Of a stretch of 32,000 bases of DNA, positions 23,832 to 30,966 are shown in pieces. Each line of letters opens with the position of its first letter. Position 1 is the first letter of the stretch. Source of the DNA: Candidatus Iainarchaeum sp. Lineage in GTDB: Archaea > Iainarchaeota > Iainarchaeia > Iainarchaeales > JACQJH01. The notes under the pieces were generated by a model, which was given only the letters and a program-made list of their open reading frames with translations, was not told the origin of the DNA and did no database searches. A program made the translations under genes and the position numbers. The stretch is from positions 150,001 through 182,000 of the forward strand of contig JACQJH010000002.1 of the NCBI GenBank assembly GCA_016205145.1, written 5' to 3'.

Positions 23832-24077
23832 ATGGACTCCTCCACTCTGACCGTGAAGTTCAAGGGAATTGAGAACGAAATACTCGACGAAATGGTCGCA
23901 TCCGGCATGTTCGCAACCAAGACTGAGGCATTAAGGTCCGCGCTGGTTAAATATGCCATTGACGCCGACATGTTCAAGGGAAAGGCGCTCTGGGAACGCA
24001 TAAAAAGCGCTCCGCGCAGAAAGGTTTCAGACAAGCAGCTTTTCCAGGACATCGGGGCAGTCAAGAATGAAGCCTGA
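23832..24077 (+). CDS. vapB: ribbon-helix-helix/CopG-like antitoxin (VapB-like)
   Basis: 81 aa. LTVKFKGIENEILDEMVASGMFATKTEALRSALVKY fits a strand-helix-helix pattern. It overlaps the downstream PIN gene by 11 nt. Confidence 0.6.
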   Translation: MDSSTLTVKFKGIENEILDEMVASGMFATKTEALRSALVKYAIDADMFKGKALWERIKSAPRRKVSDKQLFQDIGAVKNEA

Positions 24078-24492
24078 ACCGTTCATTGATTCAAGCGTTT
24101 TCATAATAGCCAAGGAACGGCCGCAGTCGAATTCGGCAAAAATAATGGAATTGCTTGCCGGCAGGGAAATAGAAGCGGTCGTTTCAGCCAAAGTCGTGAG
24201 GGAAGTTTTCGCCTACTTCAAAGGCCATTACGGGAAAGACATTGCGTCGGATTACCGCCTGTTTATAATGCAGGCGTGCCGGATAATCGAACCGTACACA
24301 ATAGAAAAGGAACTCGCGCAGTGGAAAAACAGGATAAAGGAAAAGGACTTGGAGCACATTGCCACAGCCAAGGCCGTTCACGCAAAATTTTTGGTGGGCT
24401 TCGACCGCCACTTCAAGCCGTTCCCCGAATACAGGACGCCGAAGAAGTTCCTCAAAGAAATTGGAATAAAAGAAAGGCGGACAGAATACTGA
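24067..24492 (+). CDS. vapC: PIN-domain protein (VapC-like toxin)
   Basis: Acidic positions FIDSSVF, VVREV, KDLEH and GFDRHF. 141 aa. Confidence 0.7.
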   Translation: MKPEPFIDSSVFIIAKERPQSNSAKIMELLAGREIEAVVSAKVVREVFAYFKGHYGKDIASDYRLFIMQACRIIEPYTIEKELAQWKNRIKEKDLEHIATAKAVHAKFLVGFDRHFKPFPEYRTPKKFLKEIGIKERRTEY

Positions 24493-26631: not shown

Positions 26632-26767
26632 TACCTAATTGTCCAAGGCGGATATAAAAAATCATGTGGACGCAAAGTGAACATTTCGGCTCCTTCTTGC
26701 TTTTAAACGCCGCAGACGGCAATTGGTATTAAAGCCAGATTTTCAACCAAAAAAAGGGGGCGGAAAC

Positions 26768-27343
26768 ATGGTGGAAAAAAAACATATTCTGATTCTGTTT
26801 GCACTGATTGCAATCGGAACCGGCGCCTTCGCGTTCAGCGGGGGATTCGGCCCGATTTTCGGCAGTCAGGCGGCACAGGATGCACTCAAGGCGGGCGACT
26901 ATGCAGCATTCACAACTGCAATCGCTTCTACGCCCCGCGGGGAAAAAGCCGCGCAGAACATTTCACAGGACCAGTTCAAGGCGATGTCGGCAAACTTCAA
27001 GCAGGCGGGGGAATTCAGGCAGAAGATGGATGCATGGCAGCAATCCGTGCAGAAAGCGCTGGATGACAATAATTACCAGGAATGGGTTAATGCAATGAAC
27101 GCAAAGCCCAAGCCTAAAAGCATAACCGACGTAATAACGAGCGGCAATTTCACAGTATACGTCAAATACCAGAAGGCACTGCATGACAAGGATTTCACGA
27201 CTGCAAAAACTCTTGCACAACAGCTCGGCCTTGACGCATTGCATCCGGGCGTTCTGGGCTTTCACGCTTTTGGACCCGGAAACGGCTTCCACGCGGCTTC
27301 AAAGGAAAAGTTTCGCGGAAGAATGCTCCAAAAGGCAAGTTGA
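26768..27343 (+). CDS. secreted helical protein with an internal repeat (hypothetical)
   Basis: Signal peptide ILILFALIAIGTGAFAFS. Repeats start QDALKAGDYAAF, QKALDDNNYQEW and QKALHDKDFTTA. GGGGG (26756-26760) lies 7 nt upstream of ATG 26768. Confidence 0.65.
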   Translation: MVEKKHILILFALIAIGTGAFAFSGGFGPIFGSQAAQDALKAGDYAAFTTAIASTPRGEKAAQNISQDQFKAMSANFKQAGEFRQKMDAWQQSVQKALDDNNYQEWVNAMNAKPKPKSITDVITSGNFTVYVKYQKALHDKDFTTAKTLAQQLGLDALHPGVLGFHAFGPGNGFHAASKEKFRGRMLQKAS

Positions 27344-27354
27344 CCCACATATCC

Positions 27355-27387
27355 GGAAGGGAAAACCGGAAACGGTTTTCCCCTTCC
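27355..27387 (+). promoter_or_regulatory. stable GAAA-capped stem-loop between the secreted-protein gene and the ABC ATPase gene
   Basis: GGAAGGGAAAACCG-GAAA-CGGTTTTCC(C)CTTCC forms 14 bp with one bulged C. A second small hairpin, TCAGA-AAA-TCTGA plus ATTTT, follows. Confidence 0.55.
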
Positions 27388-27422
27388 TCCAAATCAGAAA
27401 ATCTGAATTTTGCGGTGACCGC

Positions 27423-28127
27423 ATGCGGAAAACTGTTCTCGAATTGCAGGACGTCTGGAAAATCTACAAAATGGATTCCGTTGAAGTGCCGGCCGTCAAG
27501 GGAATAAGCTTCAAGGTCTCTGATGGCGAATTCGTTTCAATCATGGGCGCGTCCGGCTCCGGAAAATCCACTGTTTTGGGCATCATCGGCGCGCTTGACG
27601 TTCCCACAAAGGGAAAGGTCTTCCTTGACGGCACGGAAATAACAAGCCTGCCGGAAGACAGGCTTGCAAGAATCCGGGGGAAAAAAATCGGCTTCGTTTT
27701 CCAGACATTCAACCTCTATCCGACGCTCAATGTTTTTGAGAACATTGCCCTGCCAATGAAAATCCATGAATTCGACAAGAAGGCGCAGGAAGAGAAAGTA
27801 AGGGAGCTTGCCAGATTGGTGGGCCTTGAGCACCGCGAGCACCATTTGCCGGCACAGCTTTCCGGCGGGGAAAGGCAGCGCGTCGCCATTGCAAGGGCGC
27901 TTGCTACGGACCCTGCAATGATTTTGGCGGACGAGCCTACCGGGAACCTTGACACCAAAACAAGCCGTGAGATAATCGGCCTTTTCGTGGACCTCAACAA
28001 GCAGGGCCGCACAATTGTCATGGTCACGCACGAGCAGGACAACGCGGCGGTTGCGGAAAGGACAATCGAATTGCGCGACGGCGAAATCATTTTTGACGGA
28101 AAATTTTCCCGGAGGTCAAAAAAATGA
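27423..28127 (+). CDS. ABC transporter ATP-binding protein, MacB/LolD family
   Basis: Walker A GASGSGKST, signature LSGGERQRVAIARAL, Walker B ILADEPTGNLD and H-loop VTHE. The family-typical FQTFNLYPTLNVFENI is present. Confidence 0.9.
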   Translation: MRKTVLELQDVWKIYKMDSVEVPAVKGISFKVSDGEFVSIMGASGSGKSTVLGIIGALDVPTKGKVFLDGTEITSLPEDRLARIRGKKIGFVFQTFNLYPTLNVFENIALPMKIHEFDKKAQEEKVRELARLVGLEHREHHLPAQLSGGERQRVAIARALATDPAMILADEPTGNLDTKTSREIIGLFVDLNKQGRTIVMVTHEQDNAAVAERTIELRDGEIIFDGKFSRRSKK

Positions 28128-29650
28128 GCAAAAAAACATGGTTAATCCTGGCGGCATTGGTTGTGGCGGCGTTTTCACAGAACGCATTCGCGGCGGCATC
28201 GGAATACGTTTACCTGACTGACTTGACGGGCACGACATTCCTGCCATCAACAATTTATTCTGGAGATATCGTAAGCATTGCCGTTGACGTGAAGAACAAG
28301 GGAAATTTCACGCCGATCGTGAACATGAACGCCAGCCTCGACATCGGCAACCAGTTTGAGGCAGTTGACCTCAATGACAGCATATCGCTCATAAATGCCG
28401 GCTCGACAAAGACCCTTGTGTTCAAGATCCAGGTCAAAAACGACACACTCCCAGGATACTACCCGGTTTTCCTGATAATGGATTACACGAACAATGACAA
28501 GCAGACACGGGAAACGCACACAATCCTCGTGCCGGTGTCGAAAACCGAAAAAAGCCTCGACATCACAGTTGAGCCGAAGGTCATAAATCCAGGGAACCAG
28601 ACCGAAGCGACTTTCACGATTGCGAACACCGGCACCACTCCGGTGTCCAACATTTCCTTCAGCTGGGCGGAAGCAGGCAACCTCGTCCTTCCGGTGGGTT
28701 CGGACAACATCAGGTACATCAACAGCATTGACGCCGGAAAATCCGCAAAGGTCACTTACACGATTGCCGCGGACCCCAACATAGCGCCCGGAATCTACCC
28801 CCTGAAAGCGACGCTTTCCTTCGCCGGAGTCGATGGCACGAAAACCCAGGAATCAGACATCGGCATAATCATCGGCGGAAAAACCGACTTTGAAATCAGC
28901 GCGGAAATAACCGCGGCGGGCCAGCTTTCAATCAGCATCGCAAACATTGGGTCGAACAATGCCCAGGCAGTTGTCGTCAGAATTCCGCGCGGGCAGGGCA
29001 TTGCAATCAGCGGAAGCGATACCGCGATTCTCGGCAACCTCAACAAGGGCGACTTCACGCTCGCAAATTTCACTACGATCAGCCGCGGATTCAGCCAGGA
29101 AACAACTAACAGCGCCGGAATGCAGGGCCAATCATTCACTGACATGCATGGAACACAACAAAACCAGGGCACACAGGAACCGCAGCAGACCGGCAGCCAA
29201 AACCAGCCTGCTGGCACCCAGGGAACTGGTGCGGCTTTCCAGAGAAGGAACCCGGGAACATTGGAATTGGAAATAGATTACACGGACACTACCGGTGAGA
29301 GGCAGGCGGTCAAGAAAACCGTCAACCTGAACCTGGACACTGCGGGCGGCACAGCAGCAGGAACCGGCACAGCCGGAACGTTCGCGCAAAGGCGCGGGGC
29401 CGGCAGCAACAATCTCCTGCCATGGATACTGCTTGCGCTTGTCGCGGGCGGCGCGGCGGCATTCAACAAGTTCAAGGCGGGAAACGCAAACTGGAAACAG
29501 CTCGGCAAATTCCTCGCTGCTTCGGTTGCGCTGTTCCTCATGGCAATTTTCGTGTTCAACTCCGAATTGCTGTGGGTCGCAATAGCCGCGGCCGCGTCAA
29601 TCGCACTGCTTGTTTTCCATTTCAGGAAACAGGCGGGGGATAAGCAATGA
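28124..29650 (+). CDS. surface protein with three CARDB/COG1361-like beta-sandwich repeats, a Q/T/G-rich spacer and a C-terminal multi-TM anchor
   Basis: Signal peptide ending AFA-AAS. Repeats contain SIAVDVKNKGN, ATFTIANTGT and LSISIANIGS. At least 7 N-x-S/T sequons. 2-3 C-terminal TM helices. ATGA overlaps at both ends. GGAGGT (28111-28116) lies 7 nt upstream. Confidence 0.75.
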   Translation: MSKKTWLILAALVVAAFSQNAFAAASEYVYLTDLTGTTFLPSTIYSGDIVSIAVDVKNKGNFTPIVNMNASLDIGNQFEAVDLNDSISLINAGSTKTLVFKIQVKNDTLPGYYPVFLIMDYTNNDKQTRETHTILVPVSKTEKSLDITVEPKVINPGNQTEATFTIANTGTTPVSNISFSWAEAGNLVLPVGSDNIRYINSIDAGKSAKVTYTIAADPNIAPGIYPLKATLSFAGVDGTKTQESDIGIIIGGKTDFEISAEITAAGQLSISIANIGSNNAQAVVVRIPRGQGIAISGSDTAILGNLNKGDFTLANFTTISRGFSQETTNSAGMQGQSFTDMHGTQQNQGTQEPQQTGSQNQPAGTQGTGAAFQRRNPGTLELEIDYTDTTGERQAVKKTVNLNLDTAGGTAAGTGTAGTFAQRRGAGSNNLLPWILLALVAGGAAAFNKFKAGNANWKQLGKFLAASVALFLMAIFVFNSELLWVAIAAAASIALLVFHFRKQAGDKQ

Positions 29651-30966
29651 GGCTGTCCGACTCGTTTAAGCTGTCCGTCAACAGCATACTGCACAGGAGA
29701 CTCAGGAGCTGGCTTACGCTTCTTGGCATAATAATCGGGGTTGGGGCGGTCGTAGCAATCATTTCAATCGGCGAAGGGGCGCAGGCAAGCATAACCTCCC
29801 AGCTTTCATCGTTCGGGGCCGGCATAATAACAATCAGCCCCGGCGAAGGAGGGGCACAGCGGTTTGGGGGTGCATTCCGCATGGGCGGAGGAGGAGGCTT
29901 TGGCGGCGGAATGGAGCATGACACAAGAACAGGAACCCAGGCAAGCGCAAAAGAGCCCACGCTTACAAAAATAGACGTTGCAATCGTTTCCGCGAACCCG
30001 AACGTGCTTTACGTCAATGAAATCGTTTCCGGCAGGTCCAAGCTCACGTTTCTTTCAGAACAGACAAACGCAAGCCTTCAAGGCGTGAACCCCAATGCAT
30101 GGAAGCAGACTTCAAATCCCGGGCTTGCGGAAGGCAGATTCCTTACATCAAGCGATTCCTCCGCAATCGTCATAGGAAACCGGATTGCAAATGACATTTT
30201 CAAGCAGCCAGTCACGGTCGGAAGGAAAGTCACGCTCGAAGACCCGGACGGAAACCCGCAGGCGTTCACGGTTGTAGGCATCCTAAAAGAATCGGGAAGC
30301 GCAGGAATCGGCGCGTCAAACAGCGATTCGACTGTCTTCATGCCATACACTTCGGCATGGAACATGACAGACGTTAACAAGGACACGTTCTCTTCACTGC
30401 AGGCCAGGGTTTTAGACGCGGAAACCGTCGACCAGACAACGGAGGAACTCACGGCAGCCCTGCAGATTTCAAGAAGGGTCACTGCAGAAAACCAGGACTT
30501 TTCAATCACTTCTGCACAGGCGATAAAAGAACAGGTCAGCAGCATAACCCAATCGCTCACGCTTTTCCTCGGCGCAATTGCCGCAATCGCACTGCTCGTC
30601 GGGGCAATCGGGGTCGCAAACAGCATGTTCACTTCCGTGCTTGAAAAAACAAAACTCATAGGCATATTGAAGGCGCTCGGCTCGACGGACAACGAAATAG
30701 TCATGCTGTTCATAATAGAATCCGGCCTGTTCGGCCTCTTAGGCGGAATAATGGGCGTGGTGCTGGGCGCATTCGCTTCAATCGGAATCGCAAGCATGGG
30801 CGGGCTATCCCTGCCGATTGCACGCGGCGGGACGACAAGCCTCATAACGCCCCAGCTAGTCATAATCGCGGTCGTGCTGTCAACAGTCATCGGCATCGTC
30901 GCGGGCGCCATGCCGGCAAGGTCGGCGGCCAAACTCAAGCCGGTCGACGCGCTGAGATACGAATGA
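29647..30966 (+). CDS. ABC transporter permease, MacB/FtsX family (1 TM, extracytoplasmic domain, then 3 TM)
   Basis: N-terminal LRSWLTLLGIIIGVGAVVAIISIG, an external domain of about 250 aa, and a C-terminal FtsX domain (IGILKALGSTDNEIVMLFIIESG...AKLKPVDALRYE). Confidence 0.9.
   Translation: MRLSDSFKLSVNSILHRRLRSWLTLLGIIIGVGAVVAIISIGEGAQASITSQLSSFGAGIITISPGEGGAQRFGGAFRMGGGGGFGGGMEHDTRTGTQASAKEPTLTKIDVAIVSANPNVLYVNEIVSGRSKLTFLSEQTNASLQGVNPNAWKQTSNPGLAEGRFLTSSDSSAIVIGNRIANDIFKQPVTVGRKVTLEDPDGNPQAFTVVGILKESGSAGIGASNSDSTVFMPYTSAWNMTDVNKDTFSSLQARVLDAETVDQTTEELTAALQISRRVTAENQDFSITSAQAIKEQVSSITQSLTLFLGAIAAIALLVGAIGVANSMFTSVLEKTKLIGILKALGSTDNEIVMLFIIESGLFGLLGGIMGVVLGAFASIGIASMGGLSLPIARGGTTSLITPQLVIIAVVLSTVIGIVAGAMPARSAAKLKPVDALRYE

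Follow-up and report, generated by a model that had tools for sequence, protein, structure and literature searches.

A COG1361-like β-sandwich protein encoded between a MacB-type ATPase and its permease is a candidate exporter accessory subunit in Candidatus Iainarchaeum and other archaea

A stretch of 32,000 nucleotides of Candidatus Iainarchaeum sp. (assembly GCA_016205145.1, contig JACQJH010000002.1, positions 150,001 to 182,000; hereafter the window) carries three consecutive open reading frames (ORFs) on the plus strand, in which the genes of an ATP-binding cassette (ABC) ATPase and a MacB-type permease enclose the gene of a 508-amino-acid (aa) β-sandwich protein of the COG1361/CARDB superfamily (Table 1). 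We regard this middle protein as a dedicated extracytoplasmic accessory or adaptor subunit of the MacB-type pump, and put the probability of this reading at roughly 0.55. The observations behind it are the families and the architecture of the three proteins, the invariable linkage of their genes, the linkage of the operon to regulators, and a sister branch of the middle protein encoded beside resistance-nodulation-division (RND) transporters. An earlier reading of the same DNA, made from the letters alone (the original prediction), had left open whether the middle protein is an adaptor of a MacB-type motor or its cargo; the results below strengthen the adaptor option, mainly through the RND-linked branch, and disfavor cargo.

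The outer two genes encode a genuine MacB-type pair, as had been claimed. The ATPase contains GASGSGKST, LSGGERQR, ILADEPTGNLD and VTHE, so that Walker A, signature, Walker B and H-loop motifs are all present. Its mechanical ORF begins at 27183 and overlaps the upstream gene, but the alignment with homologues starts at the ATG at 27423. The best NCBIfam matches of the ATPase were DarD, LolD, FtsE and MacB, all under the equivalog cut-offs, and its nearest solved chains were Spr0694 (5xu1_A, 1e-66), MJ0796 (2e-60), LolD and MacB. The permease matched the MacB_PCD profile of Pfam over the full length of the profile. Its nearest NCBIfam model was MacB, again under the equivalog cut-off, and the nearest solved chains were those of MacB (5gko at 2e-39, 5lil and 5nik; range for MacB 2e-39 to 7e-33), with a further match to Spr0695 (5xu1_M, 3e-29). 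Hydropathy placed transmembrane (TM) segments at aa 23-41, 306-324, 351-369 and 404-422, which agrees with the predicted topology of one TM segment, an external domain (approximately 264 aa) and a three-TM FtsX block. Altogether, the pair belongs to the type VII ABC transporters (MacB/FtsX superfamily; COG1136 plus COG0577, or 'SalXY'), and it presumably assembles as an ATPase dimer with a permease dimer. A glycine-rich low-complexity loop, GGAQRFGGAFRMGGGGGFGGGMEHD, follows the first TM segment of the permease (aa 66-98; window 29842-29940), and similar glycine-rich stretches were seen in the other secreted proteins of the locus.

The middle protein is 100% identical to NCBI HY394_04120 from a Candidatus Diapherotrites metagenome-assembled genome (MAG), and its homologues bear the NCBI name 'COG1361 S-layer family protein'. 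Both the Pfam matches and an AlphaFold2 (AF2) model, which was built with 83 homologues and reached a mean predicted local distance difference test (pLDDT) score of 84.9 (above 90 in the sandwiches), bear out the predicted signal peptide followed by three CARDB/COG1361-like β-sandwiches, the plan characteristic of the CARDB-NEW3 family; the peptides cited for the three repeats (SIAVDVKNKGN, ATFTIANTGT and LSISIANIGS) are likewise present. On the other hand, the Q/T/G-rich segment that had been described as a spacer is in the AF2 model disordered and inserted into the third sandwich (aa 324-371). It does not separate the sandwiches from the TM block, because the conserved IDYTDTTGERQ strands that lie past the insert complete domain 3. 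The label of a surface glycoprotein fared less well. Seven N-x-S/T sequons were indeed counted, but shuffles of the same composition yielded 6.0 +/- 2.2 (p ~0.39), and only N158 and N176 remain sequons in 52-63% of the homologues. As the sequon count is at the level of chance, we do not accept it as evidence for a glycoprotein.

No NCBIfam model matched the middle protein, and a sequence profile search against the PDB with it gave nothing below an E value of 0.02. Foldseek against the PDB retrieved only generic tandem immunoglobulin (Ig)-like proteins at TM-scores under 0.25, integrin legs and alpha-2-macroglobulin among them, and neither search informs on function. Pfam and AF2 revealed neither an enzymatic nor a coiled-coil domain, and Pfam gave no match to the MmpS family. 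The fold bears directly on the idea that the three genes constitute an importer, in which the sandwich protein would be a membrane-anchored substrate-binding protein. Archaeal binding proteins are often anchored to the membrane and encoded in ABC operons, but tandem Ig-like sandwiches are not a binding-protein fold, and the FtsX/MacB-type permease class has no known importers (PMC5985334); we consider an importer highly improbable.

The linkage of the three genes was surveyed by a family profile scan over one genome per GTDB species, which recovered 206 relatives of the middle protein, and the best 80 of the 206 were taken as related loci. Their taxon labels are Iainarchaeia/Diapherotrites, Micrarchaeota, Woesearchaeota, Nanoarchaeota, Nanohalarchaeota, Methanoperedens, Methanocellales, Methanosarcinales and others. 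Neighboring genes were scored by tblastn of the three proteins of the window against the 80 loci, among which the flank was present on the upstream side in 75 and on the downstream side in 75. The ATPase gene lay directly upstream of the middle gene on the same strand in 75/75, and the permease gene directly downstream on the same strand in 75/75. A lack of co-conservation had been named beforehand as an outcome that would refute the original prediction, and the middle gene was linked to the ABC pair wherever this could be examined. Two more distant members retrieved by protein search likewise adjoin MacB_PCD permeases. Since an order of ATPase, middle protein and permease that is invariant across phyla would otherwise not be maintained, we take it to reflect a functional link.

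The junctions between the genes are tight as well. In the window, both ATGA overlaps and both Shine-Dalgarno (SD)-like motifs that had been reported are present (Table 1). Among 70 loci, with the start codon taken as that of the longest ORF, the junction from the ATPase gene to the middle gene was at most 20 nt in 48 and a 4-nt overlap in 28, and that from the middle gene to the permease gene was at most 20 nt in 58 and a 4-nt overlap in 16. Such short or overlapping junctions suggest coupled and roughly equimolar synthesis of the three proteins. The fourteen long gaps at the junction of the ATPase and middle genes contain an extra small gene. In approximately 18 Iainarchaeial loci (e.g., L009:3618-4001), the product of the extra small gene found between the ATPase and β-sandwich genes consists of G/P/D-rich repeats behind a signal anchor and has no family match.

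The linkage argues against the middle protein being an independent surface-layer (S-layer)-type protein or adhesin that shares an operon, and nothing else, with a housekeeping efflux pump. The NCBI name of the homologues is in line with that idea, as are the CARDB-like modules found in many archaeal surface proteins (PMC5498576). The position between ATPase and permease genes, with overlapping junctions, is nevertheless invariant across phyla, and translational coupling inside an ABC operon would be unexpected for a major lattice protein. In addition, COG1361 genes are reported from Thermoplasmatales without an S-layer (PMC10354927). We thus regard an independent surface protein as improbable.

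The absence of a MacA/HlyD-type adaptor gene, on which the original prediction had remarked, was upheld. No membrane fusion protein (MFP) or HlyD-type match was found among the neighboring proteins of the window, nor, by family searches and ORF clustering, among the conserved neighbors of the 80 loci, so the system lacks the MFP adaptor that belongs to a tripartite pump of the MacAB-TolC type. ORF clustering revealed no further class of genes that is conserved over the 80 loci. The middle protein itself is not an MFP in its composition: it is made of all-β sandwiches, carries a C-terminal TM block and has no HlyD-type Pfam match.

The second line of evidence comes from haloarchaea. A tblastn search of the middle protein against PLSDB returned one distant match on a Haloplanus plasmid (25% identity, E value of 2e-7). 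The Haloplanus protein has four sandwiches between a signal peptide and a C-terminal TM segment, and 55 nt separate its gene from that of an RND/MMPL transporter downstream, with a divergent helix-turn-helix (HTH) regulator gene opposite. With this protein as the query, 38 haloarchaeal plasmids or megaplasmids were found, and 8 of the 38 records were inspected, namely the Haloplanus plasmid plus Haloferax volcanii pHV4, Halobacterium salinarum PHS3, Haloarcula marismortui pHMA133, Salinigranum marinum, Haloarcula pelagica, Natronorubrum bangense and Haladaptatus sp. In 7/7 of the further loci, the RND/MMPL gene follows the COG1361/CARDB gene by 0-15 nt, so that the latter is directly upstream (0-55 nt) of the former in 8/8 haloarchaeal loci (L083-L090); in Haloferax volcanii pHV4, the pair is HVO_RS03915 (COG1361-like) and HVO_RS03920 (MMPL; L084:5133-9004). 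Four of the seven further loci, and hence five of the eight overall, have a divergent TetR/HTH regulator in their annotation, and the layout of these operons resembles acrR-acrAB or mmpS-mmpL. Comparison of the MacB-linked and RND-linked groups by hhalign gave a probability of 99.6% (E value of 1e-23) with a collinear alignment over 276 columns that covers domains 1-3. As one superfamily is encoded beside both types of pumps, we consider that it supplies accessory proteins to two exporter classes, as MFPs do. Both partner classes, MacB-type and RND/MMPL, have large external domains.

The RND-linked branch also matters for a reading modeled on FtsEX, in which the ABC pair would transport nothing and instead switch the sandwich protein for adhesion, cell-cell contact or surface-layer organization. 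Type VII ABC proteins do include non-transporters that act on a partner, as FtsEX does on EnvC, PcsB or RipC (PMC5985334). The strict 1:1 gene linkage would suit a dedicated partner of this kind, and a variable distal domain and a number of sandwiches that ranges from three to five among the homologues would be expected of an outward binding module. The external domain of the permease is, however, a MacB_PCD domain (5e-35), while FtsX_Gpos scored 23.9 bits versus a cut-off of 225. Furthermore, the sister branch pairs with RND/MMPL exporters, which are true transporters, and the middle protein is devoid of an enzymatic or coiled-coil domain. We therefore judge such signaling to be unlikely, although it is the foremost of the alternatives.

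The membrane segments and the pattern of conservation help to distinguish an accessory subunit from cargo. The original prediction had given the middle protein its own block of two to three C-terminal TM helices. Three are present in the window protein, but the block is lineage-specific: by hydropathy over the 80 loci, two to three TM segments are typical of Iainarchaeia and one is found elsewhere, such as in the homologues of Woesearchaeota, Nanoarchaeota and Methanoperedens. The AF2 model of a Methanoperedens homologue displays the identical plan of three sandwiches plus insert, with one long TM helix. Many of the one-TM homologues (loci L042-L077) end in a basic tail approximating KKKLxNPxFKxKDLFKKKK, which could contact the ATPase or the cytoplasmic face of the permease. 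As a precedent for an accessory subunit, the TM and cytoplasmic regions of MacA and SpMacA stimulate the ATPase activity of MacB (PMC5985334). In the homologue alignment, the proportion of columns with at least 90% conservation rises from 6% in domain 1 to 18% in domain 2 and 30-39% in domain 3. The motifs LPxGSDN, GGxTDF, ANIGSNxA, GNLNKGD and YTDTxGxR recur throughout the family. Conservation that increases toward the membrane fits a contact site level with the external domain of the permease.

As cargo, the sandwich protein would be extracted, positioned or released at the cell surface by the motor, in the manner of Lol-like extraction or dispersin-like export. Genes of dedicated exporters frequently lie beside those of their protein substrates, and there are precedents in LolCDE, which extracts proteins anchored in the membrane, and in the Aat system, which exports dispersin (PMC5985334); the single C-terminal anchor of most lineages would be extractable in principle. 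Extraction from the membrane is, on the other hand, hard to reconcile with the three TM helices of the Iainarchaeial members, the window protein included, and the conserved basic cytoplasmic tail of many one-TM members speaks against it as well. Likewise, the peak of conservation lies near the membrane, and the family occupies the adaptor slot of RND/MMPL operons, whose pumps do not export folded proteins of 50 kDa. Cargo appears to us a little less probable still than FtsEX-like signaling. Thus, the linkage combined with the RND-linked branch leads us to favor an accessory subunit over cargo.

Several results count against an accessory subunit. Linkage by itself fits a cargo or a co-regulated surface protein equally well. 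The TM segments of the middle protein have no sequence conservation (0% of the columns at 90% or more), Foldseek gave no structural similarity to MFPs, and the longer homologues (514-683 aa) owe their length to extra sandwiches, with no fusion to FtsX or MacB_PCD among them. The MacB-linked members found are all derived from MAGs; the top matches of three protein searches were MAG proteins only, with no cultured organism carrying the MacB-linked branch among them, and the taxonomic assignment of some MAG contigs is doubtful.

Two observations concern the assignment of MAG contigs. The middle proteins at L044:3893-5251 (bin label Methanosarcinales) and L065:3890-5239 (bin label Woesearchaeota) are 87% identical, which points to either recent transfer between DPANN archaea and methanogens or mis-binning, and a locus labeled as Gammaproteobacteria (L001) is probably mis-binned. 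The copies of Methanoperedens reside on contigs of up to 747 kb, which supports a real presence in Euryarchaeota. By an exhaustive profile search, the family comprises 535 clusters (50% identity) at an E value of 1e-30 or lower. A 4-kb metagenome contig (L081:83-3946) encodes a distant member (27% identity), followed by an unknown 140-aa gene and then a MacB_PCD permease; a protein with a Por_Secre_tail signal of the type IX secretion system (T9SS) is encoded on it as well. This contig hints that a bacterial (Bacteroidota-like) version of the family may exist.

Taking the middle protein as an accessory subunit, we propose that the three genes specify one membrane machine, namely a type VII ABC transporter with a third subunit. 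The latter would be a membrane-anchored stalk of three COG1361/CARDB β-sandwich domains and a functional counterpart, but not a descendant, of MFPs (MacA, YknX and Spr0693) and MmpS. Its membrane-proximal domain 3 and TM segment(s) may dock on the permease, of which the external domain, moved by ATP hydrolysis, would expel a substrate located in the membrane or the pseudo-periplasm, perhaps a membrane-active toxin, a peptide or a lipid-like molecule. The variable distal domains could serve as an outward guide or shield. The contacts, the stoichiometry, the direction of transport and the substrate of this machine are inferred. A wider proposal, to which we give slightly less than even odds, is that COG1361-like anchored sandwich proteins represent a hitherto unrecognized, archaea-wide class of exporter accessory proteins that replaces MFPs, for both MacB-type pumps (DPANN, Methanoperedens and relatives) and RND/MMPL pumps (haloarchaea), in regulator-controlled operons of envelope defense.

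Table 1. Positions of the operon and its surrounding features in the window (E values follow the family names).
Feature	Position	Strand	Basis or remark
ABC ATPase (nucleotide-binding domain, NBD), MacB/LolD/FtsE-type, 234 aa	27423-28127	+	ABC_tran 9e-35
COG1361/CARDB-NEW3 protein, 508 aa (middle protein)	28124-29650	+	Pfam CARDB 2e-9, NEW3 (NPCBM_assoc) 5e-9
Middle protein, signal peptide	28124-28195	+	
Middle protein, domain 1	28217-28537	+	AF2 sandwich, aa 32-138
Middle protein, domain 2	28556-28873	+	AF2 sandwich, aa 145-250
Middle protein, domain 3	28889-29080 plus 29258-29326	+	AF2, aa 256-319 and 379-401
Middle protein, disordered Q/T/G-rich insert	29093-29236	+	aa 324-371, inside domain 3
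Middle protein, disordered linker	aa 409-428		AF2
Middle protein, three TM helices	29414-29644	+	AF2 helices, aa 431-450, 457-476 and 482-507
MacB-type permease, 439 aa	29647-30966	+	MacB_PCD 5e-35, FtsX 4e-15
Permease, TM1	29713-29769	+	
Permease, extracytoplasmic MacB_PCD domain	29770-30561	+	
Permease, FtsX three-TM block	30562-30912	+	
SD-like GGAGGT with ATGA stop/start overlap	28111-28116 and 28124-28127	+	sequence read
SD-like GGGGGA with ATGA overlap	29635-29640 and 29647-29650	+	sequence read
wHTH91, winged-helix regulator, 91 aa	25623-25898	-	HTH_45 7e-14; NCBIfam Sso10a-family 1e-13
TM252, membrane protein of ~6 TMs, 252 aa	25873-26631	-	six hydrophobic segments; divergent from the ABC operon
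Divergent intergenic region	26632-26767		two A/T-rich TATA-like boxes: GATATAAAAAAT near 26651 and palindromic GCTTTTAAACGC at 26699-26710
HEL191, N-terminally anchored helical protein, 191 aa	26768-27343	+	one TM, three GDYxAW/F repeats
Hairpin between HEL191 and ATPase genes	27355-27387	+	10-nt perfect arms inside 11-nt arms

The operon is accompanied on its upstream side by conserved genes for a membrane protein (TM252), a winged helix-turn-helix (wHTH) regulator (wHTH91) and an anchored helical protein (HEL191), on which the original prediction was silent. The wHTH91 gene overlaps the stop codon of the TM252 gene by 26 nt. The homologues of wHTH91 are 54-75% identical and their position is kept in 24 related loci, and that of TM252 is kept in 26 related loci of several phyla. 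TM252 matched no Pfam or NCBIfam family, and we regard it as a candidate membrane sensor that partners wHTH91. The intergenic region on the divergent side of TM252 may be a promoter or operator. In 22 loci, a homologue of HEL191 is encoded immediately before the ATPase. HEL191 of the window had no Pfam match, but one homologue matched Metal_resist (CpxP/Spy/ZraP-like, 1e-5), which may be a weak lead to a CpxP/Spy-like stress protein.

An upstream flank of 1.5 kb or more was available for 63 loci, and 25 of these had the arrangement of TM252, wHTH91 and HEL191. Another 28 encode an alternative regulator, a divergent fusion of two N-terminal TM segments with a C-terminal wHTH domain (DUF7343, 1e-9), so that a membrane-linked wHTH regulator of either type faces the operon in 53/63 loci. 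No homology between the two types was detectable in direct comparison. In a locus of Methanoperedens (L058:1975-3218; similarly L071 and L076), two other genes directly upstream of the ATPase gene replace the wHTH regulators, one for a small protein that has a CxxCH motif and a PGF-CTERM signal (1e-5) and one for a membrane-anchored protein with a Lon_C (S16) protease domain (8e-18). The divergent membrane protein and wHTH protein may set the expression of the pump, as in inducible efflux or detoxification operons, and the pattern of the locus is that of a putative inducible, membrane-sensed envelope module.

Between the HEL191 and ATPase genes lies a hairpin with a 14-bp stem. The fold of 27344-27425 reached -32.3 kcal/mol (z = -5.3), and none of 200 shuffles was equally stable in RNA folding; the hairpin may act as a terminator or attenuator, or as an element of RNA stability. 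Searches of the window with Rfam and for tRNAs found no RNA element and no tRNA, respectively. The neighboring genes in the window (glnA, purB, purC, PEPCK, ilvD, ilvC and leuB) are of ordinary metabolism, and therefore the locus belongs to the chromosomal core rather than an island. A small ORF that overlaps the gene of a 141-aa PIN-domain protein (PIN_3, 3e-7) is found between ilvD and ilvC (23832-24492) and looks like a VapBC-type toxin-antitoxin pair. An anti-phage defense system was considered for the operon and rejected, as PADLOC yielded only generic matches to ABC-ATPase and LolE-TM.

To our knowledge, archaea have MacB-type and RND exporters essentially without MFP adaptors. Among the literature that mentions COG1361, we found no paper that reports a function; archaea are not mentioned in a major review on the MacB family (PMC5985334), and neither RND, MMPL nor CARDB comes up in a survey of Haloferax annotation problems that are still open. 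If the middle protein is indeed an accessory subunit, a family annotated as 'S-layer protein' would be re-assigned to a pump, and the mechanotransmission ABC systems would gain a novel type of partner. A defined module of defense or efflux would in turn be added to what is known of the envelope in DPANN archaea and methane-oxidizing Methanoperedens. Since Haloferax volcanii, Halobacterium salinarum and Haloarcula marismortui all carry the RND-linked branch, the idea is open to direct genetics and biochemistry.

An exporter with an accessory subunit is already a known kind of system; the class of accessory protein would be new, and is partly anticipated in annotation. In Methanococcales, Archaeoglobi and Thermococci, SalXY-type (MacB-type) ABC genes have been noted near those of predicted S-layer proteins and of small membrane proteins, with suggestions of antimicrobial-peptide transport or membrane-associated defense (Makarova et al., 2014, 2015; PMC4158269; PMC5898192). 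These surveys contain neither the triad of ATPase, COG1361 protein and permease as a unit, nor the regulators or the RND-linked branch, and they report no experiment. Within the COG1361/CARDB-NEW3 surface proteins, the subfamily described here is set apart from the others by the five motifs and the obligatory linkage to MacB-type genes. A possible parallel in Mycobacterium tuberculosis is Rv0986-Rv0988, which comprises an ABC protein, an FtsX-type permease and an exported protein.

FtsEX and LolCDE share with the system of the window the type VII ABC architecture and the action on an extracytoplasmic partner or substrate. The window proteins differ from LolCDE in their model scores (lolCE 78.4 bits versus a cut-off of 362; LolD 230 versus 308) and have no LolA-type partner, and they differ from FtsEX in the FtsX score given above, in that of FtsE (222 bits versus a cut-off of 265) and in having no hydrolase activator. 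With four TM segments, the permease is also unlike that of the BceAB-type detoxification modules, which has ten and an external domain between TM7 and TM8.

The accessory proteins of two exporter classes offer the closest comparisons. MmpS4 is a TM-anchored two-layer β domain that binds the periplasmic loop of MmpL4, is required for export and is encoded in the same operon (PMC3561183). The middle protein resembles MmpS in being a TM-anchored β-sandwich candidate accessory beside an exporter, and its haloarchaeal relatives are encoded directly upstream of MMPL/RND genes; MmpS nevertheless consists of one small domain anchored at the N-terminus, and the motor in the window is ABC, not RND. In MacB-type transporters, ATP drives the movement of the external domain, and monoderm bacteria retain an MFP partner, YknX or Spr0693 (PMC5985334; PMC5768738). 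Like Spr0693-0694-0695 of Streptococcus pneumoniae and YknWXYZ of Bacillus subtilis, the system described here combines a separate ATPase with a four-TM permease bearing a MacB-type external domain, and encodes a third, anchored extracytoplasmic partner in the same operon, in cells with no outer membrane (PMC5768738; PMC4887032; PMC5985334). It departs from these monoderm MacAB-type pumps in the partner, which has tandem Ig-like sandwiches in place of the α-hairpin, lipoyl and β-barrel domains and is anchored by one or more C-terminal rather than N-terminal TM segments, and in the gene order of ATPase, partner and permease.

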